DNA of 64,000 nt, taken from assembly GCA_010093815.1 (NCBI GenBank), contig ML996565.1; one strand, written 5' to 3'. The translations under genes were made by a program, and so were the position numbers. The stretch comes from Pseudovirgaria hyperparasitica (taxonomy: Eukaryota). Positions 1 to 27,321 of this stretch are shown one piece after another; positions within the stretch are counted from its first letter, which is position 1, and the number at the start of each line of letters is the position of its first letter. The notes under the pieces are model-generated. The model saw only the letters and a list, made by a program, of their open reading frames with translations. It ran no database searches and was not told the DNA's origin.

Positions 1-3000
1 TACTTATCGGCGATTAAGGACCTTAGTTAATATAAAGTAATATAGATTTACGTAATCCGATAATAATTCGATCTAATATATAGAGCCTTCTAAATAATAT
101 CGCTATTACTTAAAACTCTTAATAATTATAAGTAGTTTCTAGTCGTACGTATTATAACGCGTCTCTATATCCGCTATTTTATAGGAAAAGAAAGCGACCG
201 GGTACTATTATATCTTATCTTTCGTATCTTTATATGGTTAACTAATAATTCTAGTAATTATAAATTCTAACGCGTTAGTTTCGACCTAAATATACTTCTT
301 AGGATTAAAATACCTAAGAATCGGCGTAGTTATAAAGTAATTCTTTAACGATCGGAACGTATCTCGCGCTTCCGGTATTAACTATATCTTAACCGACTTA
401 GCTTTACGCTATACTCGCCTACCTATAGGGATTTTACCGCTATTCTCTATAAGTTTATTAAGCGGCGCCGTAATTCGTAAGAAGCCTATAATGAATTTAC
501 GATAATAGTTTATAAAACCTATAAATATTCTAATTTAACGTATAGTAGTAGGTTCTAGCTATTCTATAATAGTCTTTACACGCTCCGGCTCTATTTTTAG
601 GCCGCTATATATTATAATAAAGCCGAGAAACCCAACTTCTTATTAGTGAAACTTATATTTAGATAATTTTACGTAGAGTTTATACTACCTTAGACGATTT
701 AGCACCGATTTTACGTGTTCTTTATAATCCTATATACTATTGGAGTAAATTAGTATATTATCGAGATAAACTATATAAATCACGTTAAGTAATCCTATAA
801 GTATAGTGTTAATATATTCTTAAAACGCTCCTAGCGCATTTATTAGCCCGAATGGTATAATAGTATACTTAAAATAACTATATCTAGTCCGAAATACGGT
901 TTTCTACTTATCTCCGTAATGAATTTAAAGCTAGTAATATATATCTCGTAAATCTAGCTTCGTAAAGTACTTTACCTTTATTAATTAGTCTAAAGATTTA
1001 TTAACTAGCGGTAATAGGTAACGATTCTTCTTAGTTACTATATTTAGTACCTAATAGTTAACGTATAGATATAAACTTCCGTCTTTCTTCTTCACGAAGA
1101 GAATAGATACGCTAGCCGATAATATACTATGACGTATCTAGTCTCTTTCGAGGTATTCTTTAATATATTTATAAAGAACTTCGAGTTCTAGTCTTAAAAG
1201 TAGGTAAAGTAGGCTATAAGGGACGTCTACTCCCTCTTTAAGCTTAATCTTTAGCTTATACGGCCCGTGATTAGGGAGAAGTAATATATCTTCTACCGAA
1301 AATATATCCGTATACTACGAATATATATCGGGTAGCGTGTCTTCGCTCTAATTATTACTATCGTCCTTGTCTTTATCGATAATTAATAAGGACGTAAGAT
1401 AGATTAGCGATGATTAGATCCGTATAGCGAGGTTCTATGCCTCCTTACTAATAGTTACGACTTACTAGTATAATTTACTATAGTATTATCGGAATATTAA
1501 TATCTCCTTCTAAAAATCAAGGATGGAGTTTAGGCGTCTAAGCTAAGGTATCCCTAGAATCATATTCTATTAGCTAATATTAGCCACGATAAATTCATTA
1601 GACATCTACTATTTTATTATCTTCGAGTTATGAACTTCGTAATTCGTTATAGCTTTACCTAAAGTTCTAACTTTATATCTATTAACTATAATAGTTCAGC
1701 TAACTTTACTAAGATCGTATAATAATCTATACTCCTTTACGAGAATTAATAAAATATAGTTATCTTCTATACTAGTGTCTACGAGGGCCTATATAGTTTT
1801 ATTACTATTTACTATAGGTAACGATACTTTTAGTAATATTAGATCTTTACTTACCGGAAGGCGCTACGGCTCCTTCTAAGTATATATAATTTAGCTAAGA
1901 ACGCGGTTAGGTCTCGTGTACTAGCCTATTCTTTTTTTAGATTCTTATAGTTAGGCGAAATATATCCTATTTTTCTATACTTATAGTAACGAAGTATACT
2001 ATAATCCTACTATTTTACGATAGATGTTATATTTAAGTCTATACCTTATCCTTTTCCGTGTTAAGAAGTACCGCCTTAATTATTTTAGTATCCTCTTAAC
2101 GCGTTTCTACCCCGATTTATACTCTTCTAGCGCTAATTATAGTAAGGTTACTCTTAATTAAACGTATTCGATCGATCTCGTTTCTAACCTATATAGGGTT
2201 CGTCGGTTTTACCTAGAGAGCCGCGTTCCTTAAGGATGCGGTAGTATTTATTAGCTTTCTCCTCTAATTTATATAGATAGTTAAAACTTAATAATACTAT
2301 TTCTAGTCTTTCACGGATTAATGGAAGTAGTACTTCGCGAAACTAGAATATACGAATATTTTCCTATAGCGTAGGGATATTATCCTATAGGTTTTAGAGG
2401 TATTATAGTAGTTAAGTAGGTGTCTAGTTCGGTCGTTATACTACGCTTCTTAACTTAGATAGTGCCTTTCTTTTACGTTCTCTATCCGTTCCGAGGGTAT
2501 TTAGTATAAATATAGCTAAATATTTCTAGGTTATCGTAGATAGTAGCTATACTTCCTTCTATCTATCCTATTAATCGCGGGATTATAAGTCTAGGTATCG
2601 TTCTCCGAACGAAATGCGTTATACTTTAGTAGAAAAGAGTAGAGGGTTATTAAGGAAGTACTTTTCGTAGTCTCTCTTCTAGTCTTTCTACTCCTTTTAG
2701 TTCTTCTCTATAAATATAGTCGGGTCTTTAGATTTTAGTATACCTAGGGAAGGAGTAGGGTAAATTAGTAACGAAGCGGCCGGGTATACGGTGGATTATC
2801 GTAACTCTAATAGTAGATAAACTAATTCCGCCTAAATTAGTATAGGAAGTCGTCCACCTACTATCGTTTAGCGTAGTTCTTTAAGAGACTCCTTAAGTTC
2901 TTATCTCTTTACGAGGAGTTTCGCGCGTTCTACCTATTCTTTAAGGGTTTAAATCTCTTAAGTCTAATTTGCGACGTATTTCTAAAGTTCGGCGATAGTT

Positions 3001-3501
3001 TATTATAATACCTTACGTGGCTCTACCACGACTCGTTATCCGGCTTTATATTATTAGAAGTTACTCGGTGTATCTACTATTTCTTTATCTAAAAGCTCCG
3101 TAATTTAGTCTAATATTTCTACTTCTTAGTTAGAAACGGCCGGGATTAATACCGATTATAGAGAATCCCTATTATTTAATATAGTATTACTTATCCCTAT
3201 AGTAGATCGTATTAACCTTCTCGGTTCTAGTTAGACTATCTTAACTATAGTACTATATAGGGAGTAATTCGAATATAAGAATAGGGTTATTAGATAGTAG
3301 TATAGTTAGATAGAATAATAGGGTGTATTCTATTATAGAACGAATTACTACTAAACCCTTTTAGTAGGAATCCGAGAGTATATATATAAAGGGACGCCGA
3401 TCTATCTAGCACGTGACTATTTACCGCCCTTCACGTTACCTCCTAACCCTGTTAGCTAAGGTACGTGTAGATTAGGTCCTACCTAAGGCTAAGTCCTAAT
3501 A
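1..3501 (-). mobile_element. RIP-inactivated Ty3/Gypsy LTR retrotransposon (gag-PR-RT-RNaseH; runs off the left edge)
   Basis: Minus-strand translation gives degraded motifs in Gypsy order: zinc-knuckle remnant YYKYRKIGYISPNY (~1950-1995), protease ALVDTS (~1770-1790), RT K*KTVFRTRYSYFKYTIIPFGLINALGAF (~825-910) and YLDNIL (~751-768, from YLDD), RNase H VETNA (~270-288, from ETDAS). Many stops; CpA/TpG depleted and TpA enriched. Confidence 0.93.
3331..3501 (-). repeat. Putative 5' LTR of the Gypsy element
   Basis: Ends read tattatag...gtcctaata, as expected for TGTTA...TAACA termini after RIP; lies upstream of gag; contains a TATA-like run. The partner LTR is outside the window. Confidence 0.45.
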
Positions 3502-4550
3502 CTTACCCTTATAGCTTACCTTATAGCTAGTAGTATCGGATTTAATACTATATTTCTTAGCTAGATTAAGTATCTTTAGCTCGATATCTTAAAATCGTAA
3601 TATATCTCGAGTTAATAAATTATTAATAATATAGTCTATAGTATTAGGTAATAAGATAAGAAAGAATAAACCCTTAACCTCTTTAGATTTAAAAATTAGA
3701 TATATTACTTTTACGACTATATAAGATAAAGTAGCGTATCTTTTTACTATTCGCATCTAGGTATAATAGAAATTATTAATATATTTGCGGATATCTTCTC
3801 CGTCTTTATAGCGGAGATTAGTAAGTAATCTAAATAGATATATTAAAGAACTACCTATATTATAGTTAAAACGTAATAATAGATAACTCTATATAGCTAC
3901 TACTATATTATAGGAAGTAAGACCTATAATAAGATCTTAATATATTAACGAGAGTAATATAATTATTACCTTATTATCCTTTATATCCTAATCTATTATA
4001 TCTATATATAAATCCGTGACTCTAGTACTAAAGGGTCTAATAACCCTACTAGAGACTATTATCTATAATTATATATATTTAAATACGATTATCTAAGCTA
4101 ATCTCTACTTAGGGAAATTCTCTTCTCTTAAAGATAGCTTAGATAGAGAGGAAGGGTTAAGTTTAAAATTAATAGATATAGTTATTAATAAGTTTCTCGG
4201 GTTCCTTCTCTTTCTTTATATAGAACTTATTCCGACTCTTTCTATTTATTATATATTTATAAGGAAGGTAGTAAAGGTAAAAGAGGTAGAAGGACGGTAT
4301 AGAGGATGATATAGAGACTAGAAGTTAATAAGATAGTAGAATTAAAGTAAAACTTTAATAAGATTAATAAGATAACTAAGTTTTAGAGAAGAGACTTACT
4401 TTTATTAAAATATAATAGTTTTTATTAATAAAGAGGTATTTTAAGGCTTTTATAGTAAAGCGCTAGGCTTATAATCCATTATAAGTAGAAAGTAGACGTG
4501 ATTAAGGTTATTAAATATATTCTATAATTATATATAGAGAACTAAGTTCT
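3502..4550. repeat. Heavily RIP-mutated AT-rich relic of unassigned class
   Basis: Same TpA excess and CpA/TpG loss, no ORFs, fairly sharp return to normal composition near 4550. Confidence 0.65.
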
Positions 4551-5061: not shown

Positions 5062-6296
5062 ATGGCAACAGCTGAAGCCACGCCCGCGCCAGCCGCAAAG
5101 GAAACATTCCACCTGATCAACGACCCCTCAGAAGCCATCAACGAAGCCATGTCCGGCCTAACCACGCTCCACCCCACCCTCTCCTATTCCGCAAAGCACA
5201 AAATCACATATCGCAGCGACATCGCAACCTTCAGGGAGAACCACGTCACAACAATCGGATTCGCTGGCGGTGGGCAGTACGTCTCACTCCCAATCCCCAC
5301 CTTTTCCCCCCTTCTATCCCTCCCTCCCTCAGCTCCCTCCCTCCAAACCACAACCCCATCTAACACACCCCCAGCGAACCCATGTTCACCGGCTTCGTCG
5401 GCCCCTCATACCTCACCTGCGCCGTCTCAGGCACAATCTTCGCCTCCCCGACCGCCGCCCAAATCCTCGCCGCCATCGCCCTCTGCCAGCCCCACCCCGC
5501 CACCTCCCCCGGCACCCTCCTCGTCTGCGGCAACTACACAGGCGACATCCTCAATGCCGGACTCGCCGTCACGCGCGCCCAGGCCCTCGGGTACCGCGTC
5601 AGATTCGTTCCTGTCGGCGACGACGTGGCTGTCGGAAGGGCGCAAGGGGGGAGGGTGGGGAGGAGGGGACTGGCGGGGCATCTTGTTGCGTTGAAGGTGG
5701 TGTGTGGGATGGCGGATGAGGGGGTGGGGTTGGAAGAGGTGGGGCGTGTGATGGAGGGTGTTGTGGGGGATGTAGGGACTGTGGGGGTGGGGTTTGATCG
5801 GGTGGGGTTGCCGACGGGGGTTGTTGGGGGACTGCCTGTTTTGCCGGGAGAGACGGTGGAGCTGGGGATGGGAGCGCATGGGGAGCCGGGGCTGGAGAGG
5901 ATGAGTCCTGTGCCGTTGGTGGGGGAGCTGGTGGGGAGGATGGTGGGGTTGTTGACGGATGTGGGGGATGGGGATAGGGGGTTTATCCCGTTTGAGAAGG
6001 CGAGGTATGGGGATGGGGAGGAGGGGGCGGATAATGCGGTTGTGCTGGTTGTGAATTCGCTGGGGAGTACGGGGGATGGGGTGTTGGCGGTGTTTGCGGG
6101 GGAAGGGGTGCGGGAGTTGAGGGGGAGGGGGTTTCGGGTTGAGAGGGTGGTGATGGGGCCGTTGGTGACGAGCTTGAAGATGAGTGGGGTGGGGATGACG
6201 GTTTGGAGGCTGCCGGTTGGGGAGGGGGTGTTGGGTGCTGCTGAGGCGCTGAGGTTGTGGGATCGGAGGGTTGATGTTGTTGCGTGGAGGCAGTAG
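5062..6296 (+). CDS. Dak1 (DhaK) domain-only dihydroxyacetone kinase-like protein; intron 5277-5374
   Basis: Splicing restores GGGHEP.FTGFVG; also GTIFASP, NYTGDILN, GDDVAV..GRRGLAG, ELGMGAHGEPG, VNSLGS, TSL. No Dak2 domain follows. Confidence 0.88.
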
Positions 6297-11138: not shown

Positions 11139-12398
11139 AGGCATTACGCTCTTCATCTGAACCGAATTCACCTGCCATGCTATCATGACATTGATTAGGC
11201 TATGCTCATATGGGTTGCGATATACCGATGGGAAGTAACTACATATGCAAAATACTAGGCCTGTTGAACTACCACTCCGTGCGTCGTACGTGTTGTAATC
11301 CATGAAAATACGTCATACATTATAAGCTGGGACCACATGCCAGGCTGCGTCCGTTGGACAGCACTCCATTACTCCATACTCAAAATCCTGGTCGGTTTGG
11401 TACTCAGTATTCTGAATCATGGAGAGCATCAGCATCTGACGCAGAGCAGCTGCAGCATGACGACGACTGGGGGCATGGTTCGCCAGTTTGAACGCGGGAC
11501 TGTGGGACGCGAGGAACGTTCCATGCATCGAAACCTGCTTTTGTAGTATATCCTCCGTCACTTGTGGTGTGGAGATGCCGTTGCCAAGCGACGTGGTTGT
11601 GTCAGGTGTAAGCGGCTACCTAGGCCGTCTGGGTGGGTACTCTATCCATTATGAAGTCAGTTCGTGAATGTAAGCGAGATGAATAACAGTGGTAAATGCT
11701 CTCTCTCTACTCAGAAGTTCACGAAGAGATGCTCCAGATGATCAAGATGATCAAGATGAAATCGTTCTCTTTAGCTTCCATAAGGCTTCGTCTATGAAGG
11801 AACAGCAAGATATAGCTGGCTCAGACTCGAGTCATAGAGCTAGATGTGTCAGATCTAGCAGCGGTAGCTAATTACAGTTAAAACATGACGCCACGCGTAA
11901 ATAGGCGAAACAACGGGACTGTGGCGCAACGTGTGGTGGTGATGCGAAGTGAATGGTGACGGCAGAAGGAAAACATGGAATGGCTTCCGATGACGATGCG
12001 ATGAGGTCAGATCGCGTCCGCGCTAATCGCAGCGAGGCCCGGCCATTGGTTACGCTCTGAATGCCTCAGGCTTAAATGTGGCGTTGCGGAAGTGGCTGGT
12101 TACACCTTCCCTGCTTGATGGTCAGTTGTGGCGCAAGCTCTATCAACATTCCTGGTCGTAAACAGGTTACAGACGTCGCATTCACTCCACTCGAGCCCAA
12201 TCGCAACACTCTCTGACGTAGCACCGCTGAACCTCACCGTGCACCACAAATACGTACTTAACTACATATACCAGCCTGTCTTCCGCCCAACAGACTGCTA
12301 TCCTCACCAACTCTTCTCTACAAAAACTTTACCGAATCCTCTCATCTTGATCAACTTCCAGACTACCTGAACTCAGACAACACTTCACCCACTTCATC

Positions 12399-13388
12399 AT
12401 GTCTAACATCCTCAATAAGGTCACCACAAAGGCCGAAGAGCTCCTCCACAAGCACAACACCACCAACAACCCTAACACTGCCCATACTGCTACCGGTACC
12501 ACTACAACTACACACGGAACCACAACCACAGCTCCACATACCGGTGCTACACACCAAGGCCACTCTCACGGTGATCCAACCGGCATCTCGTCAACAGGAG
12601 CTGGTTTCGGAACAAACCACGGCACCTCGACCAACGCTGGCCCTCACAACAGCAATGTTGCAAACAAGCTCGACCCGCGCGTAGACTCCGACCGTGACGG
12701 CCGTGCTGCTCACACCGGTACTGGCTACGGCTCTACCCATCAGACTACCGGCACCACAGGTGCGTACGGCGCGAACGAGAATATCCACAGCTCCAACCAC
12801 GGCCCACACAGCTCCAACCTCGCCAACAAGCTCGACCCCCGCGTCGACTCGGACCGTGACGGCAACCGCACTGCTCCAGGAGGTGGTGACCCATCATACG
12901 GTACTCCGGGTGCTCATACAGGTACCTCGCACAGTGGAACTGGTATCGGAGGTGTAGGCCACGGCACTACTCAGCACTCCACCTTTACCCCTGGCACGCA
13001 CACCGGCACGCACACCGGTGCATACGGCAATGAGAACCCCAACAGCACAAACCATGGCCCGCACGGATCTAACCTCATGAACAAAGTCGATCCTCGCGTC
13101 GATTCCGACCGCGATGGAAACCGCACTGCTCCCGGTGGCGGTGACCCCTCGTACGGTGCTCCAGGCGCACACACGGGTAATACATATGGCACTCAGCACG
13201 GTACCACACATGGCGGCAACTCTGGCTTTGGCACGACTGGTACGTCATCGTCCTACACGCCCGGATCTGGCAATGCGTCCAACACTGCTGGTCCGCACGA
13301 CTCGAACCTCCTAAACAAGCTTGATCCTCGCGTTGACTCGGACCGTGATGGATCAAAGACGACTGGCGGAAATGCTACCTACAGGTAG
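12399..13388 (+). CDS. Fungal dehydrin-like DPR-repeat stress protein
   Basis: Four copies of GPHxSNxxNK(L/V)DPRVDSDRDG in a G/T/H-rich hydrophilic single-exon ORF. Confidence 0.9.
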   Translation: MSNILNKVTTKAEELLHKHNTTNNPNTAHTATGTTTTTHGTTTTAPHTGATHQGHSHGDPTGISSTGAGFGTNHGTSTNAGPHNSNVANKLDPRVDSDRDGRAAHTGTGYGSTHQTTGTTGAYGANENIHSSNHGPHSSNLANKLDPRVDSDRDGNRTAPGGGDPSYGTPGAHTGTSHSGTGIGGVGHGTTQHSTFTPGTHTGTHTGAYGNENPNSTNHGPHGSNLMNKVDPRVDSDRDGNRTAPGGGDPSYGAPGAHTGNTYGTQHGTTHGGNSGFGTTGTSSSYTPGSGNASNTAGPHDSNLLNKLDPRVDSDRDGSKTTGGNATYR

Positions 13389-13781: not shown

Positions 13782-15700
13782 CTACGGCAACACCCTCGGC
13801 TCACTTCTCAAAAACTCAAAATCACACCCCTCATGCGCCTGATTGACCGTCCGCTCATACAGCGCCCGATAACCCCTCGTCGCTGCCTCCCTTTGTCCAA
13901 CTCCCCCACCTCCCCTCCCCTCCCTCCTCTCCGCAATCCTCCGCCCAATCTCCTCCTCCCCAAGCTCAACGCCAATAAACCGCCTCTCAACATCCACCGC
14001 AACCCAATCCCCCGAGCGCACCACGCCAAACACACTATCCACAACCGCCGCCTCGGGACTCACATGCAGCACCACCGTCCCGCCCGCAGTGCCAGACATC
14101 CGCCCGTCGCTGATACGCAGCATGTCGCGCACGCCCTGGAGGGCTAGTTTGCGCGGGATCGGGATCAGGCCTGCTTCGGGCATGCCGGGCCCGGCGCGGG
14201 GGCCTATGGTTTGTAGGATGAGGACGGTGGAGGGTGAGACGGGGAGGTGAGGGTCGTCGATGCGGGCGGCCATGTCTGCGGGGCTGGAGAAGACGAGGCA
14301 GGGCGCGCGGTGGGTGAGGAGGGGTTTGAGCAGGCTGGCGGAGGCCTTGAGGATGCAGCCTTCGGGGGCGATGTTGCCGCGGAGGACGACGAGGGAGGAG
14401 TTTGGAGCGAGGGGGGTGGAGAGGGGGCGGATGATGGAGTGGGAGAGGGGGAAGGGGCGGAAGGGGTTTGTGGAGAGGATGGTGCGGAGGGAGGAGCCGG
14501 AGATGGTTTGGGTGTCGAGGTGGAGGAGCGGGGCGAGGGTGTGCATGAGGGCGAGCATGCCGCCGGCGTTGTGGAAGTCGGTCATGTAGTTTTCGCCGCT
14601 GGGCTTGAGGTCGAGGAGGAGTGGGGTGCGGCGGCCGATGGCGTCGATGGTGTCGAGGGTGATTTGGCCGGCGAGGGTGGGGTGGCGGTTGATGATGGCG
14701 AGGAGGTGGATGATGGCGTTGGTGGAGCCGCCGAGGGCTTGGAGGACGGTGATGGCGTTGAGGAAGTTTTCTTTGGTGAGCATTGTTTGGGGGAGGAGCT
14801 GGGTTTGCGCGGCTTGGACGGCGTTCATTCCGGTTTCTTCGGCGATGCGGAGCCGGGCGGAGGAGACGGCTGGTGCGGTTGCGCCACGGAGAGGCATGAG
14901 TCCGAGGGCGGCGGTGATGCAGGCCATTGTGCTGGCGGTGCCCATGATGCCGCATGTGCCTATCTATGGGGTCGGTGGTTTAGAAGTTGTTCGAGGGGCA
15001 TGTATTGCTGCTGACTTACCGTAGGAGCGAGTTCTTCGTTCAGCGCGGAGATGTCTTCCATGTCGATATTACCAGCTCGGAACGCAGCCCAGTTGCTTCT
15101 GCAATCTGTGCATGCACCGAGTCGTTTTCCTCTGTGGCTGCCGGGCATCATGGGCCCGGTGACTAGTGGCAGGATAGGTCTATTTGCAGATATACCGCCC
15201 ATCAGCTGTGCTGGGACAGTCTTGTCGCAGCCCAAGGAGTCTGTTAGCACTCATGCTTGCGCGAAGAAGATCCTGTACACACCTCCAATCATGACACAAG
15301 CATCCATTGGCTGGGCTTTGATCATCTCCTCCGTGTCCATGCTCATCAGGTTCCGTAGAAACATGCTTGTTGGGCTCGAAAACGCCTCATGGAGACTGAT
15401 GGTTGGAAATTCTATCGGAAGCCCGCCCTTCAACAGGATGCCTCGCTTTGTTGCTTCAATGAGTTGTGGAACATTGCCATGACACGGGTTGAAGCCCGAG
15501 AAGGTGTTTATGATTCCGATGATTGGACGTGAGAGAGCATCGTCACTCAAACCGAGAGCTTTGATAAAGACTTTTCGAAGAAAGAGAGAGAAGTGTTGAT
15601 CTCCGTACGATGTGAGGTTCTTTTTCAAGCCGACCGATATATCAAGCTGCTTAGATAGATCATAGTCGTCGTTATTTAGTGCCTTGTCTGGGTCTGACAT
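13782..15700 (-). CDS. IlvD/Edd-family [2Fe-2S] dehydratase, probably catabolic; introns ~15232-15282 and 14964-15019
   Basis: FNPCH, GCDKT, GTCGIMGTASTM, GGSTNA.IHL.AI, GPGMPE, SDGRMSGT, LHVSPEAA. No obvious mitochondrial presequence, unlike ILV3. Confidence 0.9.
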
Positions 15701-15830
15701 CGTTGCATATAGAATTCTCTGCTTTGGGATCAGAGTCCACAGAGCGATGTTCAAATATATCTTATTAAGAGAACTTCAAGCAGATGGACGTACAGATGTG
15801 GTCGTGTGTGGGTCGTCAACTGGGGACGCT

Positions 15831-16028
15831 TCGGACAACGTCCGGGGACATTCGCGTTCCAACTTCCAGCCGGGGTCCCGTGTAGCGACGTGGTGCCAAC
15901 TTTGTTGTTAAAAGATATCCCTGGGTAGATCATCTCGCTTGCACGATCAAGTAGAGCCCCGTTTGTGTACCATGAGTGAACCTGTCCCACTTTTCTTCTT
16001 CGGCTGTAATCCGTCGGAGAACGTCCGA
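15831..16028. promoter_or_regulatory. Three CGG-N7-CCG candidate Zn2Cys6 sites in the divergent dehydratase/SDR promoter
   Basis: CGGACAACGTCCG 15832-15844; CGGCTGTAATCCG 16001-16013; CGGAGAACGTCCG 16015-16027. Confidence 0.65.
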
Positions 16029-16229
16029 CATAGTCAGGATAAACTGTAGTAGTAGAACGTGATGGTCAAAATGCGGAATTCGGCATAATCTGATAATACG
16101 AGGTCCTTCGTAATGATACATGGAGATAGAGTTGAAAAATACTGCCATATAGACACACAGCTCGTTCTGTACTCAGGTAAGCAAAACAGTACCACGAAGA
16201 AATGAGAGCTAACAGATCAGGAGGACTCA

Positions 16230-17096
16230 ATGTCAATGCTCGATCTTGCGGGGAAAGTGGTGCTCATCACAGGCTGCGGCCAGAGTGGAACTGAGGGTTG
16301 GGGCATAGGCGCTGCGTGTGCTGTTCTTCTCGCGCGTCAAGGGGCGAGCATATTTGGTGGCAATCGCACAATCCAGTCGGCAGCCATCACAAAGGCCACC
16401 ATAGAGAAGGAAGGCGGTACGTGCGATATATTCCCCACGGATGTCACGTCTTCAGACTCCGTAAAGCGACTTGTCGATGCGTGCATGGAGAGACACGGAA
16501 AGATCGATATTCTGATCAACAATGTCGGTCGTTCGGAGGCAGGTTGTCCTGCAACTCTCACAGAGGACCAATGGGACTCACAGATTGATATCAATCTCAA
16601 GAGCGTCTTCTTGACGTGTCATTATGTCCTGCCAATAATGGAGAAACAGGCGTCAGGAGGCTCTGTCGTCAGTATCGCGGTATTTTCTCACTCTATTCAT
16701 TACTACAGTTTTTCACTGACACGGATACAGAGTATCGCTGGCCTCCGTTATATCGGCAAGCCACAGGTGGGTTACTCTGCAACGAAAGCTGCAATACTGC
16801 AGTTCACAAAGGCAACGGCAGTCATCTACGCGGATCGAGGCGTGAGGCTCAATACCGTTGTGCCTGGCCTAATGGAGACGCCTTACACTAAAGAGCTGTT
16901 CATAAGATTTCCGGTTGCGGGAGGATACGAGAAATTCAAGGCGATGAGAGACTCTCAGGTACCAATGAGACGAATGGGAGATGCGTGGGACGTTGCCAAT
17001 GCGGCGTTATTCCTAGTTTCTGATGAAGCCAAGTATATCACCGGGCAGAAGATTGTTGTAGACGGTGGGATTACATCGTCGACTGGGAGACTGTAA
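16230..17096 (+). CDS. Classical short-chain dehydrogenase/reductase; in-frame intron 16680-16730; probable 5'UTR intron ~16177-16220
   Basis: TGCG..GWGIG, DILINNVG, VSIASIAG after splicing, YSATK, VVPG.M.TP, YITGQ.IVVDGG. Confidence 0.92.
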   Translation: MSMLDLAGKVVLITGCGQSGTEGWGIGAACAVLLARQGASIFGGNRTIQSAAITKATIEKEGGTCDIFPTDVTSSDSVKRLVDACMERHGKIDILINNVGRSEAGCPATLTEDQWDSQIDINLKSVFLTCHYVLPIMEKQASGGSVVSIAVFSHSIHYYSFSLTRIQSIAGLRYIGKPQVGYSATKAAILQFTKATAVIYADRGVRLNTVVPGLMETPYTKELFIRFPVAGGYEKFKAMRDSQVPMRRMGDAWDVANAALFLVSDEAKYITGQKIVVDGGITSSTGRL

Positions 17097-17299
17097 TGGA
17101 AGCTGAAGACACCTGCTGCTGGTCCTGTTGTGACACTTTCCGGCTCTCTCGCCCGAGCTGGTAGATGATCATATGCAAGGTGGTGGCCGGGTCACGATAC
17201 CGGAACCATAGCCAGCCCGTTGTGAATTGACGTAGTCAGAGAGATTGGTAATGGATGATTATAACGAAATAATTCAGAGGAAAACAACGACGGATAAGA

Positions 17300-17312
17300 C
17301 GGACTTCCTCCG
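17300..17312. promoter_or_regulatory. CGG-N7-CCG site upstream of the Ldh_2 gene
   Basis: CGGACTTCCTCCG, about 190 bp before the ATG. Confidence 0.6.
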
Positions 17313-17499
17313 ATCGAAGCCACAAGCGGTGTTTGCCGAACCAAGGGGCTTTTGGTGCTAGACCTCATCGGTACTAGCTTGACGAATACATGAAATGCGG
17401 GTAATACAGATACAATAAATCGTTAGGCAATTCTAACGATTCTGTTTGATATATCAAGACTGAAAGTCAAACAGAAAAAACTCACCCTGACCTGAAAAA

Positions 17500-18564
17500 A
17501 TGGCCAATGCCCAACAAGCACGACGAGTTGTCATCACGGACAAAAATGCTCGTGCATTCGTGGAGAAGATTCTCGTCGCTAATGGCGTTCCTTCAGAGAA
17601 TGCATTAATCGTTGCAGACTGCCTCGTCCAAGCGGATCTACGGGGTGTCGACTCTCATGGCATTAATCGAATCCCTTCATATATGGCCCGCATCCGGAAC
17701 GGAGTACTATCAGCCTCAGCAAGCCCGTTGGTGAAACAGGTCACCCCAGCAGTCGTCCAAATCGACGGCCAAAACTCCTTTGGCTTTCTAGGTGCCAAGA
17801 TAGGAATGGAGAAGTGTATCGAGATGGCCTCAACATTCGGGATCGGAATGGCATCTGTCAAAGGTTCCAACCACTTCGGCATGAGCGCCTGGATAGTGCA
17901 ACAGGCTGTTGACGCAGGCATGATGAGTCTCGTGTTCACCAATTCTTCGCCTGCCCTTCCTGTTTGGGGCGGGAAAGAGAAGCTGATAGGTGTATCTCCA
18001 ATCGCTTGTGGTGCCCCAGCAGGAGATATGCCCTTCATTCTGGACATGGCACCCTCAGTCGCAGCTCGAGGGAAGATATATAAAGCGAAAAGAAGAGGAG
18101 AGAAGATACCCCTGGACTGGGCGCTAGACGCCCAAGGACGACCTACAGATGACCCAGCGGCGGCCCTTGAAGGTGTCATGCTCCCCATGGGCGGTCCAAA
18201 AGGCTCTGCGCTCGCAATAATGATGGACGTCTTCTCGGGAGTGTTCTCTGGTGCGGCTTTTGCAGGACATGTCACCAATCCATACGATCCTTCCAAGCCT
18301 GCAGATGTGGGTCACTTCCTCGTTGCAATCAAACCCGATCTATTCATGTCCATGAAGGAGTTTGAAGACAGGATGCAATACTTGTACAAAAGAGTGACAG
18401 AGTCTGAAAAGGCGCAAGGGGTCGAGCAAATCTTTTTCCCGGGTGAGATCGAGCAGCGTGTACGGAGAGAACGACTACAATCAGGGATACCATACGCTGA
18501 AGCTGAGATTGAAGCATTGAACGATGAAGCTTTGAAGGTGGGAGTAAGTCCTTTGCCGACTTGA
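17500..18564 (+). CDS. Ldh_2 (type 2 malate/L-lactate/sulfolactate dehydrogenase family) oxidoreductase, intronless
   Basis: ADLRGVDSHG, SNHFG, ILDMAPS, GGPKGSALA, PGEIE. Confidence 0.93.
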   Translation: MANAQQARRVVITDKNARAFVEKILVANGVPSENALIVADCLVQADLRGVDSHGINRIPSYMARIRNGVLSASASPLVKQVTPAVVQIDGQNSFGFLGAKIGMEKCIEMASTFGIGMASVKGSNHFGMSAWIVQQAVDAGMMSLVFTNSSPALPVWGGKEKLIGVSPIACGAPAGDMPFILDMAPSVAARGKIYKAKRRGEKIPLDWALDAQGRPTDDPAAALEGVMLPMGGPKGSALAIMMDVFSGVFSGAAFAGHVTNPYDPSKPADVGHFLVAIKPDLFMSMKEFEDRMQYLYKRVTESEKAQGVEQIFFPGEIEQRVRRERLQSGIPYAEAEIEALNDEALKVGVSPLPT

Positions 18565-18619
18565 AGATCCTACATCTTGTGGTATACAAATTCATAATAG
18601 TTGCCTATGTGATGACCTA

Positions 18620-19090
18620 TCATGTGCTATTCGGAATAGTTGCCCCTAGCAGTTGCCGCGGATCCAGCCCATCACTCTCATCATCCACCTCAAAGTCAAA
18701 CCTAGTTATATCTTCCTTGTAGGGCCACAAGTGCGCACTAGTAACTCTGTATACTTTAGTACAAATACGTTCCCTCAATTCCAGTAGTACTAACTCGTAA
18801 TGTTCTTTACTTGCTTGATATTCCTCTAAAGCAGTGCGATCCTTATGGTAGCTGACGAGCGCATAGTGATATCCCTTGCTCCGCTCAATGGGATTCGTGA
18901 TCGAGGGACCTCCAACTGTAAGGCGTCCATTGAGCACACATGGGAGCCGTTTCAGCGTTTTAAGTTCTGACACACACTTCTCACGAATCTGTATGGAGAC
19001 ATCGGCGCGGAACTTGAAAAGCACTGCAGGTTTTGTTTAGAATGATGCATCAGAGATGCTCTAACACTTACCAATGTGTATAACAGTCAT
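18620..19090 (-). CDS. Dabb (stress-responsive A/B barrel) protein; 2 introns
   Basis: Spliced MTVIHIVLFKF (intron 19024-19071); SKGYHYALVS...LEEYQASKEH...RFDFE. Confidence 0.85.
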
Positions 19091-19247
19091 GTTGCGTGAG
19101 TCTCTAGAAAATTGATCGGAGAATAGGGTGCCCCTTCGAGATTGGTGCCCAAGTATGAGAGGGGTTTGTCTAGGGTGTATATCTCCATCCTTGTACTATT
19201 ACCTAACTAGGTTAGATCTAGCTCTTCGGACAAGTCCTAGCGTTGTA

Positions 19248-19260
19248 CGGAGTTTGCCCG
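19248..19260. promoter_or_regulatory. CGG-N7-CCG site in the divergent Dabb/transcription factor promoter
   Basis: CGGAGTTTGCCCG; additional TCGGA(C/G)AA half-sites near 19116, 19226 and 19335. Confidence 0.55.
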
Positions 19261-19539
19261 TGGACATTCATATCCATCATCATCATCACACAACACTGAC
19301 CACGCATTCCTCTAACAGAACAGTGCGAGCGACATCGGACAATTGGAGCTGAATCTTCAGTCTCTTAGATGACGCGTCTGGAACACAAATCTCAAAGAAA
19401 CGTGGTGAATATCATCTCTCAGATGCAAGCACCACTTTCTTCGTTTCATCACATAGCTCTGAGGCATTTATAAAAAGTCTCACGTCGATTAAACATCATA
19501 TTTTGCCAAGAACAGAGCGGTGCTTATCCGACTAATGAG

Positions 19540-21898
19540 ATGCAAAGCCCACCAGCCCAGGTTCGAAAGAAGACGGCCCGCATCCGCCTGTCATGTCTTC
19601 GGTGTCAAAAACGCAAGATACGGGTATGCTCCGAGCTGGGATCATGACAATGAGCGACTAACCTTCTGCAGTGCGACGGCATGCTTCCTGCCTGTGGATC
19701 CTGCGCTCGGGTGGGTGCGAGCTGTGTGGATGGAGATCATCTCCGTGGACGCGATTATCCGCGAGCGTAAGACTGCAACACCCTTGGTCTAGAAGCACTG
19801 TGCTGATACTGATACACACAGCTACATTGCTAGTCTCAGGAACAGAGTTGCATGGCTTGAGTCGTTACTGCAATCTAAAGGGATTGACCTGAGTCAGGCC
19901 CCGAGAGTCGAGGGTGAGACGGAAGATGAGATCAACTCGTCACAGCAGGCACATTTGCCTTCGGAGCACATATCTCCAGGCTCTGTCGATCATGAAGATC
20001 GGTCAGCCATAGTATCAGACAACGATCCAAAATTAGAGCCCCCTAATAAAGCCCAAAGCAACGCTGAAGATCTAACACATCAAATTGGGCTTGTCTCGCT
20101 ATCCAATGGATCAGATCCTAAATACATAGGACCTTCTAGTGGATTCTTCTTTGCACAGATGATGCTCGCCTCGCTGGGCCATTCTTTCCACAAGAATCGA
20201 GTTGATGAAAGTGCTGGCTCTGGCGAATCTCGGGCTGAGGATATGTATGGTGGCAGCTTCGGACTCGACTTACCCGTGCAGCTGCCGCCTAGTATGGCGC
20301 AAATTGCCCAAATCTCAAATACATATTTTGAAGTGGTACACATACAATGGCCGTTCCTCCATAGACCAACCTTTGTGGAACGTGCGAATAACGCGCTCTT
20401 GGATGAAAGCAAAGATCCCGCTGCTACGTTCGAGACATACATGGTCCTGGCTATATCCTCGCTGATACTCACGAAAAGAATGCGCATAAGCCTACCCACA
20501 ACAGGGTACTTTCTGAAAGCAATGAAGCTCTTTAACCTCATCAAAGTCGAAGGCTCTATACAGGGTCTTCAATGCTTGCTGTTACTGCAGATATACACCC
20601 TGTATAACCCTTCTGCGCAGATGAACAGCTGGTATCTCAATTACCAGTGTATTGCTGCGGCCGTGGATCTCGGTTTGCAAAGAAATATAAAGAATCACGA
20701 GACTCTACCACGTCTGGTTACTCAGATGAGGAGAAGGATCTTCTGGTGTGTGTATTGCTTCGATAGGACGCTTGGTACTATGGCCGGACGCCCAATCGGC
20801 CTTCGAGACGAAGCTTTTGATGTTCCCGTAAGTGCTGTCTTGCTGTATACTTAGAAGAGACCTCATGTGATATGCTAGCTTCCAGACGATGTTGACGATG
20901 AAGAAATGTCAGGAGACTCATCAACAGGAGTTCCAACCGGCGGGCAAACAAGTTCTCACATGTCCACGGCCATTCACCTCTTCAAGCTTGCAAGACTAAA
21001 CTCAGAGATGAAATATGTGCTTCATAGCATATCAAGAGAGCCAATCGCCTTTGCTCTACCAAACATCCCCGATATACACGCATGGCAGGACTCAATGATA
21101 CAACGCTTACAACAATGGCGACTCGAGACGCCCGAAATTCCATACACGAAATCACTCTGCGAACTCAACTATCACACCATGATGCAAGTTCTCCTCCGAC
21201 CAACACCTGCGATTCCACGTCCCAAGCCGGCCGCACTCGAAACCTGTTATGTGAGCGCCGTATCCGCGATCCGCTTGCTGAATTCCCAATACCGCAATGA
21301 CTCCATCATATATCAATCCTCAACGCTCCATTCAATCGTCCTTTCTACCCTCACTATGTTCTATTGTATCTGGGGCGTACCGAGCATTGCGGATACCATC
21401 AAGGTCGACTCCGTAATGACAGACGTCCGTTCGGCAAGCAATATGCTTGCCGCTGCAGGCGAGCATTGGCCCGGCGCAAAGCGCAGCAGCGCCTTTCTCG
21501 ATGAGCTTGGCAGCATCATAGTACGCCGTCTCGTGGATGGGAAATCCAAGACAAATGCATCAACTTTGGACTCTTCGGCACCACAGCTATCGCCTGCGGG
21601 ATCGGGTACATCCAGCGATACGTTTGGTACCCTGGGACAACCAGCAGTCAGTGCTCCCGATCCAGACCAGGGCCAGCCGCCCTTCGAAGGAGATCTGGGT
21701 CTATACGGACAGGAGTGGCAAGCTCCCTCGATGCTATACGATTGTGATGCGTCGATGGCCGGGTTTGGGGACCAGCTTGACTTCAGCTCTATGTTTGAAG
21801 GCCAAGGCTTATCGAATTCCTCTTTCGACAATCTCATGGAGGGCATGTTTGACTCTGACTGGATGTCCATGGCTACGAACTCTTATAATGGCTTGTGA
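19540..21898 (+). CDS. Zn(II)2Cys6 transcription factor with Fungal_trans domain (Ppr1/UaY-like); 3 introns
   Basis: SCLRCQKRKIR|CDGMLPACGSCARVGASC after splicing; WPFLHRPTF, DLGLQR, RRRIFWCVYCFDR..GRP; acidic C-terminus. The start could lie further upstream. Confidence 0.9.
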
Positions 21899-22258
21899 GG
21901 CCTTTCGAAGACGTGAGAACGATCATCATCCTGCAAGCATATTTTTCATGATATAAGGCATCAGTCTGTCAGTAATACAAGCTACGCTATGATAGAGAGG
22001 CCCATGTCCCCAATTCCTATCTCACGCAAGAGTCTCACGCTGATAGATTCGTACAACCACGTACAAAGAAGTGCAGCTAATACTAAAGCTCAAACTCAGG
22101 AGTGCGGGGTTGTTTCTGTCCTCCCGGATCGAGACAGACCCATCCCCATGGCTTCAACTTCCTCACATCGGCCATTCACACGAATCGCAGCTAAGAGCCA
22201 TTAAAAATATCTACCACCACACTCTAAACAACACAAATTCTACTAAACACACTCCACG

Positions 22259-23355
22259 ATGCCCCATCCCGTCTCTCACAATCCCCCCTCACACAACACA
22301 TACCACGTCAACGACGGCCCCCTCCAACCACACCAAACCGGCATCCTCAGACCAAGCCGCCCGGACCTCCCTCTCGATGAACTCCGCCGCCGCTATCAAG
22401 AAGACGGCTACCTCTTCCTCAAAGGCCTCCTCCACCGCACCGACATCCTCCAAGCCCGCGCAGCATACTTCACCCACCTCGCCCCCAGCAACATCCTCAA
22501 GCCCGGCACCAACGCAGTAGAAGGCATCTTCAACACCTCCAACCACGCCGCACACTTCCCCGGTATAGGCGCCGGATCCACCGACGAAAACGGCCGACCA
22601 GGCGGTGCAGATGCCGCCAGATTCGTCGATCTAGCGCTTGCCGCGCACACGCAAGGCTGGTACAAGGACGTGTTATGCAAGAACGCTGATCTGCACGGGT
22701 TTGTGGCGAAATTCACGGGCTGGGGCGGCGATATGCGGACGCTGAGGCGGACGCTGTTGCGGAATGGGACGCCGGGGAATAGGGCTATTGGGGTGCATTA
22801 TGATCAGATATTCCTGAGGCAGGGTGAGGATACGAGTGTTACGGCGTGGGTGCCTATGGGGGATATCTCGATGCAGGGGGGTGGTTTGATTTATCTTGAG
22901 CGAGGTTGGTGGTTTGTTCTTGATAGTGGCGGCGGACGTTCACTGATACCATTTGTTACAGGGCATATACTTGGGCGGGAGATAGAGTACGACTTCACGG
23001 CCAAGGCTAAGGCCGCAGGAATGACGGATGAGGAAGCGCGTTCTGCATTCAATGCGAACATGATGCACGGCGGTCTGCTCGCTGATGGACCTGCAGAGTT
23101 TGGTAGAAAGCATGACAGGCGCTGGTTGTTGACTGAGTATGAGGCTGGCGACGTGGTGCTTCATACGCCGTATACTGTGCGTGCTGCTTCTCTGTTTCAC
23201 GAACTGGAATCTAACACGTCTAGATTCATGCGTCGACCATCAATTGTGATCCCGATAACATCATACGGCTCGGTACAGATCTACGGTTTGTGGACTCCTC
23301 ACGGCCGTGGGACATGCGTTGGTCTAACGACTACGCGTTTGGAGACGGTGTTTGA
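22259..23355 (+). CDS. PhyH-family Fe(II)/2-oxoglutarate dioxygenase; 2 introns
   Basis: YQEDGYLFLKGLL, VHYDQIFLR (HxD), TAWVPMGD, GDVVLH, last exon IHAS...RLGTDLRF. Confidence 0.88.
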
Positions 23356-23443
23356 TAATCGTCTGCAAGGATTTTCATCGTCTGTATGAGGCCTGTCCCC
23401 GTAGAAAATATGAATACAACCTAACCCAAGTGATGTGATACGT

Positions 23444-26248: not shown

Positions 26249-27321
26249 ATGACACAACTTTCGTGGATCGGTTTGGGGAATATGGGAAGGGTCAGTAACA
26301 TACACTACACTAGCACGTCCACGTACTGCACACATTTGTTGACGCAGGTGCTAGGGCATGGTCAAGAACCTAGTAGAAAAGGGAAACTTGGACAAGCCAA
26401 TCATCATCTACAACCGTACCAAAAAACGAGCCGACGACCTTGCAGCTAAGTTAGATCAAAAGGTTGTGGTTGCAAGTACGGTTGAAGAGGCTGTCCAGTC
26501 TTCCGATGTCATCTTCACCTGTGTGGGAGATGACGCGGCAATCAATGACACCATCGATACTGCCCTGAAACAGAACGTCAAGGGCAAGCTGTTTGTCGAT
26601 TGTTCTACAGTGCATCCAGACACCACAGATGCCTTGGGCAAGAGGATTACTGAGGCAGGAGCCGAATTTGTGGCCTCCCCTGGTACGCTGCCAATTGTAC
26701 AACTCATAGAAGCCGTATTGAATCAATCCAAGTGTTTGGCGCGCCCGCAATGGCAGACAACGGACAACTTGTCTGCGTACTAGCAGGCCCAAAGTCATCC
26801 ATCGAACGGATGAAGCCATATACCGAAAACGTAATTGCGCGTGCAAACATTGAATTCCCAGATCAGAGATATGGACATGCCACTCTGCTGAAAGTCATCG
26901 GCAATACATTCATAGTGAACATGGTCGAAACGCTTGCTGAAGGACACACCGTAGCGGAGAAATCGGGACTGGGCTCTGCGAACCTGCACAAGTTCATTGA
27001 GACCATGTTCCCCGGTCCTTATGTCGCTTACAGTAATCGCATGCAGCAGGGCGATTATTACAAGCGCGAAGAGGTGAGATATATATGTGGTCCATCTGGT
27101 AGATACTAACTTGACTGTAGCCATTGTTTGCTGTCGATCTGGCAAGGAAAGACGTCGGTCATGCTCTGAACCTAGCAAAGGAGTCAGGGGCAAAGATGCG
27201 AAATCTTGAAGCTATTGAGCAGCATCTAGTCGACGTCAAAGAGCATCAAGGAGAGAAGGGTGACATCGCCGGTATATATGGCGCTGTCCGAAAAGAGTCC
27301 GGTCTCAATTTTGAGGTCTAG
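26249..27321 (+). CDS. NAD(P)-dependent beta-hydroxyacid dehydrogenase (3-hydroxyisobutyrate/6PGDH family); 3 introns
   Basis: WIGLGNMG, YNRT, FVDCSTVHP, PVFGAP after splicing, LKVIGN, LARKD. Confidence 0.9.

Follow-up and report, generated by a model that had tools for sequence, protein, structure and literature searches.

What do five adjacent genes of the fungus Pseudovirgaria hyperparasitica do, and do they do it together? They occupy positions 13782-21898 of a 64,000-nt stretch of contig ML996565.1 (assembly GCA_010093815.1; the whole stretch is termed the window) and encode, in this order, an IlvD/Edd dehydratase (minus strand), a short-chain dehydrogenase/reductase (SDR; plus), an Ldh_2 oxidoreductase (plus), a DABB protein (minus) and a Zn2Cys6 transcription factor (plus). 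An original prediction, based on the letters of the DNA, had described a compact, regulated cluster for catabolism of a sugar acid or small polyhydroxy acid. We examined the window sequence and its list of open reading frames (ORFs) with Pfam and NCBIfam profiles. The gene models and the Pfam matches, the latter on seven of the nine ORF pieces of the cluster, bear out the predicted arrangement of five adjacent genes in two divergent pairs, dehydratase/SDR and Dabb/regulator, and Ldh_2 and Dabb lie tail to tail. On balance we favour the view that the five genes make up one regulated unit, in which the Zn2Cys6 factor and four enzymes would serve to break down an imported acid, of the hydroxy or sugar type, by a non-phosphorylative route. 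Each enzyme family is ordinary by itself; the combination of IlvD, Ldh_2 and DABB proteins under one Zn2Cys6 factor with a defined palindrome was not found in the literature, in keeping with the predicted absence of a characterised fungal counterpart.

The promoters carry the first evidence of common control. Six copies of the spaced palindrome CGG-N7-CCG lie in the three promoter regions of the cluster (1,381 bp in all); when the same promoters are shuffled 2,000 times with dinucleotides preserved, the count averages 0.17, never exceeds 3 and in no shuffle reaches six. The promoter motifs that the genes had been predicted to share are thus real. The window as a whole contains 13 such sites where 12.3 are expected, so that the excess is local to the promoters. 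No exact k-mer common to the three promoters exceeded chance for k = 7-10, and the signal therefore resides in the spaced palindrome itself. Zn2Cys6 dimers classically bind inverted CGG triplets set a fixed distance apart, and we infer from the sequence that the neighbouring factor binds CGG-N7-CCG; bound as a dimer it would switch the genes on. Chance adjacency is an unlikely explanation of the locus.

The same palindrome recurs in relatives. We compared the window proteins with each of 80 fungal metagenome loci encoding Ldh_2 relatives (65-76% identity). In the 600 bp preceding Ldh_2 the N7 palindrome is enriched 5.2-fold (36 matches; 0.87 per kb, against 0.17 per kb elsewhere) and occurs upstream of the gene in 16 of 73 loci, some of them near-copies, at -100 to -440, while the other spacers, N3-N6 and N8-N12, reach only 0.4- to 1.8-fold. 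Divergent regulator/Ldh_2 promoters carry three N7 sites in locus L047 and four in L048. In the lineage comprising L044, L049 and L051 every cluster promoter has CGG-N5-CCG and none has the N7 form, and six of the seven N5 sites of L049 fall inside its cluster. This pattern suggests that the regulator and its putative site changed spacing together in that lineage.

The factor itself has the expected parts: the pattern CX2CX6CX5-9CX2CX6-8C, split by an intron, appears in the spliced reading at 19540-19766, and Fungal_trans (PF04082) matches at 19793-20851 (E 7.7e-26) in an intact reading frame. The Zn_clus profile matches the L049 orthologue, this being the protein scanned rather than the spliced window protein. 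Regulators of the Gal4/Ppr1 type share with the window factor the six-Cys cluster, the Fungal_trans domain and inverted CGG..CCG elements in their target promoters, whereas the spacer of 7 bp (5 bp in the sister lineage) matched none of the described regulators known to us.

Three of the genes are demonstrably transcribed. Transcript data came from runs X1 and X2, which represent one uncharacterised sample and are uninformative as to expression level or co-expression. Contigs from these runs show GT..AG or CT..AC joints at all five introns of Dabb and the regulator, and because of these spliced joints the runs must hold RNA-derived sequence; spliced contigs establish transcription of Ldh_2, Dabb and the regulator. 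A single RNA-derived contig, 17506-19023, spans both Ldh_2 and Dabb, and the convergent transcripts therefore overlap at their 3' ends. Cover of the dehydratase and SDR genes is confined to low-depth pieces at 13929-14457, 15247-15858 and 16895-17262, with some bins uncovered.

How widely do the genes keep company? A synteny search, put forward with the original prediction as a check on it, found the five families together in 3 of the 80 fungal loci, L044, L049 and L051, in differing gene orders but with Ldh_2 and Dabb always tail to tail, and with no further enzyme consistently added. The dehydratase adjoins Ldh_2 in 11 of the 80 (5 of the 26 with at least 3 kb on both sides), the regulator in six, and Dabb and SDR in three each; partial sets are present in 11 loci beyond the three full ones. 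Since some loci are near-copies (L007/L009, L049/L051, L055/L059, L066/L067), the independent lineages with an adjoining dehydratase number about seven rather than 11. In a quick tree the 75 fungal Ldh_2 rows all group together, separate from three bacterial ones; L044, L049 and L051, the full clusters, make up a clade with support 100 that excludes the window, and the dehydratase-pair label needs three changes, at least two of them on starred branches. The grouping of the five genes is not chance. Protein searches place Dabb and Ldh_2 on contigs of equal size in three Colletotrichum species, and Dabb and dehydratase likewise in Aspergillus clavatus.

A transporter, too, belongs to this neighbourhood, though not in the window. 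As predicted, transporter families are missing from the window: no match was obtained among the 114 ORFs of at least 110 aa outside the cluster (of 133 such in the window), a search that short exons could escape. In 16 of the 80 related loci an orthologous Sugar_tr transporter (57-71% identity among loci) stands next to Ldh_2, mostly about 1 kb downstream, and this pairing occurs in lineages with no dehydratase next door (e.g. L015, 12060-13840; L006, 840-2465). An ESM Atlas search with the transporter returned 'general substrate transporter' clusters only. That related loci carry the transporter favours catabolism of an imported compound. Ldh_2 is the hub of the cluster, pairing elsewhere with transporter or regulator. 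Directly upstream of Ldh_2 in L001 (8310-9593) and L064 (2140-3281) we also observed a GFO/IDH/MocA (Gal80p_C-like) oxidoreductase gene.

The nature of the substrate is best approached through the dehydratase. PF00920 (ILVD_EDD_N) matches all three exon pieces and PF24877 (ILV_EDD_C) exon 3, over 13785-15700. The best NCBIfam model is PRK06131, to which the three pieces contribute about 665 bits in sum (cut-off 539), whereas TIGR00110 (ilvD) fails at 258+25+50, about 334 bits, against a cut-off of 618, as does the L-arabinonate dehydratase equivalog (370 of 882 bits for exon 3). On these profile scores, with PRK06131 the best model and ilvD failing, the dehydratase is not biosynthetic ILV3, an assignment that the prediction had named among those that would refute it. 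The ORFs encode the motifs PCH (exon 1), GCDKTV, GTCG and SGTA, and hence the Fe-S cysteines, the Asp-Lys Mg site and the catalytic Ser are all present in the DNA, though the annotated splice drops the GCDK stretch; the branched-chain-class motifs GCDKNM and SGGT are not present. Among solved chains the sugar-acid dehydratases PuDHT (8ej0) and RlArDHT come closest, at 375 and 366 bits over the full length, and the best database matches include Aspergillus proteins at 64-66% identity; database protein P0121 (596 aa) is 100% identical over exon 3.

Another reading of an extra IlvD homologue is a secondary-metabolite or self-resistance locus, in which it would be a resistant copy of dihydroxy-acid dehydratase, such as the aspterric acid cluster reportedly contains. 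Fungi do keep extra IlvD copies, A. fumigatus having four (PMC3445565); but the failure of the ilvD model, the missing branched-chain motifs, and the lack of any synthase, cyclase or P450 in the 64-kb window or beside the other clusters make this reading very improbable.

Within the sugar-acid class the enzyme has a feature of its own. The motifs given for the class in the available text of PMC9314677, GCDKTT and SGTA, are matched by GCDKTV, one change away, and SGTA. That source also describes a C-terminal His that hydrogen-bonds the C5/C6 hydroxyls, and whose replacement moves PuDHT from gluconate towards glycerate. In the window enzyme the tail following DFEFL has no His; the tails of 120 fungal relatives likewise have none, and of the 75 tails that could be read in the 80 closest bacterial relatives not one ends in His, nine having one somewhere. 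The dehydratase thus belongs to a subgroup of the sugar-acid branch that has no C-terminal His, and for this reason a shorter or differently substituted acid (C3-C5, or a dicarboxylate) would be a likelier substrate than a hexonate. PuDHT 8ej0, RlArDHT 5j84/9evv and CcXyDHT 5oyn share with it the fold, the SGTA Ser motif and a GCDKT-type second Cys motif, but differ in that the window enzyme's branch has no such His and PRK06131 is its best model. The Aspergillus group-2 Ilv3-like proteins AfIlv3C and AfIlv3D, about 30% identical to yeast Ilv3, predicted to be non-mitochondrial and with functions possibly unrelated to it (PMC3445565), are of the same kind, direct orthology of the window enzyme to C or to D not being established; the available text of that study gives them no function, neighbours or regulation.

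Bacterial relatives of the dehydratase (47-55% identity; Burkholderiales, Bradyrhizobium and others) lie among genes whose roles are easier to read. The 17 bacterial loci scanned hold GntR/FCD and LysR regulators; TctC, TRAP and MFS uptake genes; sugar dehydrogenases; DHDPS-type aldolases; Amidohydro_2 and SMP-30 lactonases; epimerase-type and enolase-type enzymes; and FAA hydrolase, a company of genes characteristic of acid-sugar catabolism. In 4 of 80 bacterial loci Ldh_2 is encoded no more than 8 kb from the dehydratase relative; Dabb relatives were found in none of them. The dehydratase and Ldh_2 genes of L112 overlap at their stop and start codons, and in that locus a LarA-like gene, LarC, an SDR and an RraA-like aldolase are present; L129 has an RraA-like gene and a beta-hydroxyacid dehydrogenase, and L089 PdxA-like and GarD/UxaA-type genes.

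These pairings bear on a direct coupling of the two enzymes, in which Ldh_2 would reduce the 2-keto-3-deoxy product to an L-2-hydroxy-3-deoxy acid, for example L-tartrate via oxaloacetate to L-malate, with SDR and Dabb as later additions for a side step. The dehydratase-Ldh_2 pair occurs with no SDR, Dabb or regulator in 8 of the 80 fungal loci, the two genes are adjacent in two bacterial loci, including the one with overlapping codons, and several bacterial relatives have TctC-type carboxylate receptors beside them; 2x06, the solved chain nearest to Ldh_2 and presumably a broad 2-oxo-dicarboxylate reductase, would fit as well. Reduction of oxaloacetate or pyruvate, however, requires no special enzyme, and the pathway would stop at a 3-deoxy hydroxy acid if nothing else acted on it; we regard direct coupling as rather unlikely, though worth keeping in view.

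The Ldh_2 protein is a full-length member of its family, at 428.2 bits (gathering threshold 38.8) over profile positions 4-332 of 333 (17500-18561). It is 71-77% identical across Eurotiomycetes, Dothideomycetes, Sordariomycetes and Leotiomycetes, and thus conserved far beyond its neighbourhood, and 17 fungal sequences all keep the HG..R motif (H53, R57). P0043 and P0076, two Ldh_2 proteins with 73-74% identity to that of the window, are filed under an oak, Quercus suber; they probably represent fungal sequence among the plant data. ComC/MdhII, AllD, YiaK/DlgD, DpkA and HcxB-type enzymes share its family and its full-length profile match, but it scores below the cut-offs of all five corresponding models. 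Characterised Ldh_2 enzymes, as far as is known, act on L-configured 2-hydroxy acids.

Ldh_2 also brings up the sulfosugar option that the original prediction had floated: SDR acting on sulfoquinovose, the dehydratase on sulfogluconate, and Ldh_2 as sulfolactate dehydrogenase. The best NCBIfam name for the protein is indeed L-sulfolactate dehydrogenase, and its closest solved chains are 1vbi and, as best match, 2x06, of the archaeal sulfolactate/malate type; but the score is 278 bits against a cut-off of 500. Sulfo-Entner-Doudoroff loci are marked by a lactonase, a KDSG (2-keto-3,6-dideoxy-6-sulfogluconate) aldolase and sulfolactaldehyde dehydrogenase beside the dehydrogenase and dehydratase, and none of these marker families, nor a sulfonate exporter, is found in the window or in L044, L049 or L051. 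With the response of the A. niger Ldh_2 gene to what we decode as D-galacturonate medium (see below), and with no literature found that links fungi to a sulfosugar route, we set this option aside as highly improbable.

The SDR matches adh_short_C2 at 16230-17093 (E 7.9e-55), and adh_short too, and has the Rossmann glycine motif, NNVG and the catalytic Ser-Tyr-Lys; its intron is supported by GT..AG ends and a 17-residue gap relative to the L049 orthologue (60% identity), and its closest solved chain is 5jc8 (208 bits). A basic residue follows the second strand, which by the usual rules for SDRs suggests NADP(H) use and possibly reduction rather than oxidation.

The DABB protein is matched by PF07876 (18623-19036; 31.9 bits, cut-off 25), and a sequence search against solved chains gives nothing at E up to 1. 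The spliced model equals database protein P0241; its AlphaFold model has a pLDDT (predicted local distance difference test) score of 87.6, and the top Foldseek matches are all DABB proteins (TM, or template modelling, score 0.6-0.74; probability 1.0; identity 13-19%), among them hydroxynitrile lyase, olivetolic acid cyclase and methylmuconolactone isomerase, three enzymes of cofactor-free carbonyl or lactone chemistry. On the modelled structure the window protein shares the fold of the Passiflora hydroxynitrile lyase, olivetolic acid cyclase and 4-methylmuconolactone methylisomerase, but at an identity of only 13-19% and with no sequence-level match to solved chains. Its relatives number 206 at E up to 1e-5, all the named ones fungal, and in an alignment of 42 about 30 columns do not vary, among them His5, Tyr75, His81 and a GGPS..P.ERSKG stretch; the numbering resembles H5/Y72/H78 of olivetolic acid cyclase, taken from the titles of mutant PDB entries, with no alignment behind the resemblance. 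The protein may catalyse acid/base chemistry with no cofactor, be it tautomerisation, isomerisation of a lactone or cleavage of a C-C bond, and fill the place of the expected aldolase or lactonase.

How might these activities be joined? An IlvD-type enzyme would dehydrate a (2R,3S)-2,3-dihydroxy acid, yielding a 2-keto-3-deoxy acid, the sugar-acid class taking 2R,3S substrates only according to the available text of PMC9314677, and Ldh_2 would interconvert a 2-hydroxy and a 2-oxo acid at C2. In the order that we prefer, Ldh_2 would oxidise an L-configured (2S) acid and the SDR, probably NADPH-linked, would reduce the keto acid to the 2R epimer on which the dehydratase could act, by analogy with the fungal inversion of L-gulonate through 2-keto-L-gulonate to L-idonate. 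The preference for C2 inversion stems from the 2R,3S rule of the dehydratase, the L specificity ascribed to Ldh_2 enzymes, the NADPH-type SDR and this analogy; almost as likely, Ldh_2 would reduce the product of the dehydratase or of a subsequent cleavage. The oxidise-dehydrate-redox order originally predicted is not as well supported: the cluster is compact, probably co-regulated and probably catabolic, but the Pfam matches of the window ORFs include no aldolase, lactonase or kinase in the cluster, and the SDR appears to be of NADP(H) type.

In routes I-III (Dahms, Weimberg and Route III, as set out in the available text of PMC6336799) the first dehydratase is followed by an aldolase, by a second dehydratase with a semialdehyde dehydrogenase, or by a 4-dehydrogenase with an FAH hydrolase. 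Neither the cluster and its flanks nor L044, L049 and L051 contain a family of the DHDPS, FAH or aldehyde dehydrogenase kind. A route resembling the third of these could still be built from the genes at hand: after dehydration the SDR would oxidise the C4 hydroxyl to give a 2,4-diketo acid, DABB would replace the FAH-type hydrolase in releasing pyruvate and a small hydroxy acid, and Ldh_2 would oxidise the latter. We know of no DABB hydrolase of diketo acids, though to judge by the titles of structure entries enzymatic DABB proteins do carry out carbonyl and C-C chemistry. Bacteria are documented to use an SDR 4-dehydrogenase together with a hydrolase in this way (PMC6336799), and FAA hydrolase and SDR genes lie near some bacterial relatives; the SDR cofactor signature, however, by the usual rule points to NADPH and fits reduction better, and SDR is missing from most dehydratase-Ldh_2 pairs, so that we consider such a route improbable.

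Some guide to the acid comes from A. niger, which has one Ldh_2, seven IlvD and five Dabb genes by InterPro, and for which RNA values (rlog2) are available in supplement 1 of PMC5153877. The columns were decoded from marker genes printed in the available part of PMC4870679, gluC peaking in Ga40h/Ga20h, and gaaB and gatA in Gl02h/Gl05h; Ga is accordingly inferred to be D-glucuronate, Gl D-galacturonate and Ma galactarate, equal to the galactarate sheet. The Gl series has no zero-time sample. The sole Ldh_2 gene, 1156951, rises from 8.6 to 11.35 at 2 h and 9.66 at 5 h on D-galacturonate so decoded and is flat elsewhere, and a Fungal_trans gene 363 bp upstream of it, 43882, follows the same shape (5.5 to 9.45 and 7.86); neither rises on D-glucuronate or galactarate, apart from a slight rise of 43882 on galactarate (6.7). 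This joint response of Ldh_2 and the adjacent regulator to D-galacturonate medium makes an acid associated with pectin the leading candidate for the substrate. IlvD gene 1125454 goes from 6.7 to 13.3 and 11.5 on the same medium, three further IlvD genes are induced on galacturonate or galactarate, and Dabb gene 1172663, one of the five, goes from 1.7 to 5.3 and 5.6, orthology of these IlvD and Dabb genes to those of the window not being established. The minus-strand neighbours of 1125454 and of the Ldh_2 gene are not co-induced in the table. IlvD gene 1087590 is 224-fold up on galactarate by FPKM (fragments per kilobase per million) and, in the available part of PMC5153877, lies outside the genes tested in that study.

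Certain identities were tried and rejected. The step from L-gulonate to 2-keto-L-gulonate has no assigned gene in A. niger according to the available text of PMC5306355 and PMC4870679, but Ldh_2 was rejected as L-gulonate 2-dehydrogenase in the main, its gene being flat on the D-glucuronate columns (8.6, 7.9, 8.4). Galactarate catabolism was rejected because in A. niger it depends on three essential genes, all of other families, as was an endogenous fungal Weimberg pathway, PMC9869559 having used bacterial genes, with only the first dehydrogenase native.

Whether the dehydratase is intact in this genome is a separate matter. The annotated first intron, 72 nt, removes Gly-Cys-Asp-Lys-Thr-Val-Pro, and P0121 accordingly has none of these seven residues, which are near-invariant in 12 relatives, are present in PuDHT and include the second Cys ligand and the Asp-Lys Mg site. 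When all in-frame GT-AG options are enumerated, two retain the motif: a 42-nt intron, 15241-15282, which adds three residues, and one of 33 nt. The intron is absent at this place in six of the seven related loci where the motif was found; the seventh, L066, has it with a normal AG acceptor, and the equivalent position in the window reads GG. The sole contig across the donor (record 2, X1) is unspliced for 36 bases into the intron and ends at 15247. The first intron may thus be mis-spliced in this genome. As to composition, GC climbs along the gene, from 0.47 in exon 1 through 0.56 in exon 2 to 0.65 in exon 3, which is its least conserved part (59-68% identity), and GC at third codon positions is 0.72, against about 0.5 in neighbouring genes.

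These features could mean a decaying cluster, in which the dehydratase has lost its splice acceptor and its activity while Ldh_2, Dabb and regulator persist in another role. The GG at the ancestral acceptor, the removal of the Cys/Asp/Lys motif by the best-signalled splice, the unspliced contig, the high GC of exon 3 relative to exon 1, and its low conservation all speak for it. But all three exons remain with open frames and family motifs intact, a motif-keeping 42-nt GT-AG intron exists, and the dehydratase promoter retains three palindromes; decay is a doubtful explanation, roughly on a par with direct coupling.

Several further points weigh against one regulated catabolic unit. A dehydratase, regulator, Dabb or SDR stands beside Ldh_2 in 14 of the 80 fungal loci and the transporter in 16 others, leaving 50 with none of these partners, many of them on short contigs. 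The dehydratase and Ldh_2 are on contigs of different size in A. lentulus, in Rasamsonia, in Xylogone and in two Thermoascus species; since contigs agree in some species and differ in these five, the linkage is real but facultative. Ldh_2 falls below all five functional NCBIfam cut-offs (278/500, 224/356, 206/496, 192/316 and 190/336 bits). The route as read is incomplete, for the cluster contains no aldolase, lactonase, kinase or transporter, and the dehydratase may be defective here, given the GG at the ancestral acceptor, the deletion of the cluster- and Mg-binding motif by the annotated splice, and the unspliced contig. The C2-inversion order would depend on the stereochemistry generally attributed to the Ldh_2 family. 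The meanings of the A. niger columns are read from marker genes, with orthology of its IlvD and Dabb genes to the window not established, and the 2 h peak on D-galacturonate could come from a minor contaminant of the substrate.

The features of the cluster are collected below.

Coordinates of the five genes, the first dehydratase intron and the promoter regions in the window
Feature	Position	Strand	Details
IlvD/Edd dehydratase	13782..15700	-	exons 15700-15283, 15240 (or 15210)-15020, 14963-13782; Pfam and NCBIfam
Dehydratase first intron, as annotated, 72 nt	15211..15282	-	GT-AG enumeration and comparison with relatives
Dehydratase/SDR divergent promoter	15701..16229		CGG-N7-CCG at 15832-15844, 16001-16013, 16015-16027
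Classical SDR, 271 aa	16230..17096	+	Pfam adh_short_C2; in-frame intron 16680-16730
Ldh_2 promoter	17097..17499		CGG-N7-CCG at 17300-17312, about 200 bp before the ATG
Ldh_2 oxidoreductase, single exon, 354 aa	17500..18564	+	Pfam Ldh_2, 428 bits
DABB protein, 124 aa	18620..19090	-	Pfam Dabb; introns 18747-18794, 19024-19071
Dabb/regulator divergent promoter	19091..19539		CGG-N7-CCG at 19248-19260, 19518-19530
Zn2Cys6 factor, 734 aa	19540..21898	+	six-Cys pattern, Fungal_trans; introns 19623-19670, 19767-19821, 20828-20878

The borders of the cluster are set by the flanking genes, a PhyH-like gene at 22247-23386 and an unnamed gene at 12351-13385, as neither has a counterpart in the related fungal loci. 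The PhyH-like dioxygenase ORF, a weak match (E 7.8e-6), directly follows the regulator, and the RNA contig of the regulator extends about 3.7 kb past 21950, across this region. Farther out are a Dak1-domain gene (dihydroxyacetone/glyceraldehyde kinase type; 5364-6293), 8 kb upstream of the cluster, and an NAD_binding_2 ORF of the beta-hydroxyacid dehydrogenase type (26355-26780), 4.5 kb downstream: enzymes of C3 acids or trioses, neither with a counterpart in the related loci. Positions 1-4000 are AT-rich (GC 0.31-0.32, against about 0.5 elsewhere) with no ORF of at least 110 aa, and may be degraded repeat DNA at the edge of a gene block. A 1,088-residue open frame at 43494-46757 on the minus strand has no Pfam match at E up to 1e-4.

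Among the closest known systems are the fungal D-galacturonate pathway (gaaA-D) and the gluD-gluE pair of A. niger, which likewise serve non-phosphorylative acid catabolism, by reductase, dehydratase and aldolase steps and from bidirectional promoters (PMC5306355, PMC4870679); the D-glucuronate route inverts C2 via a 2-keto acid. As described in the available text of these papers they differ in employing an enolase-type dehydratase, a class I aldolase and D-2-hydroxyacid dehydrogenases, with no IlvD, Ldh_2 or DABB protein. The window cluster would be a variant of this kind, the fungal non-phosphorylative acid-catabolic cluster.

A wider proposal, which we offer tentatively and think less likely than the local one, is of a regulon extending across Pezizomycotina: a factor recognising CGG-N7-CCG (N5 in one lineage) would control Ldh_2, as a conserved L-2-hydroxyacid dehydrogenase, and, facultatively, the transporter, the His-less IlvD dehydratase, the NADPH-SDR and DABB. 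In the new non-phosphorylative route so formed, an imported, L-configured short hydroxy acid linked to pectin or ascorbate breakdown (e.g. L-glycerate, L-threonate, a tartrate or a pentarate) would be inverted at C2 by way of its keto acid and dehydrated, and DABB would then act on the product in place of the customary aldolase or tautomerase. If true, this would supply the first function for group-2 Ilv3-like proteins, for fungal Ldh_2 and for a fungal DABB protein. Filamentous fungi hold several IlvD-like dehydratases beyond ILV3, whose roles were left open in the available text of a 2012 study of A. fumigatus (PMC3445565), with no later assignment found. For converting glycerate and aldonates in cell-free systems, IlvD-type sugar-acid dehydratases are wanted as catalysts (PMC9314677), and a natural branch with no C-terminal His could be of practical use. 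The locus joins IlvD-like, Ldh_2 and DABB proteins under one regulator with a readable motif, and other species connect them with a transporter, and A. niger with expression induced by acids; what was a problem of annotation becomes tractable, there being a single regulator with its motif, four enzymes and a handful of candidate acids to consider.

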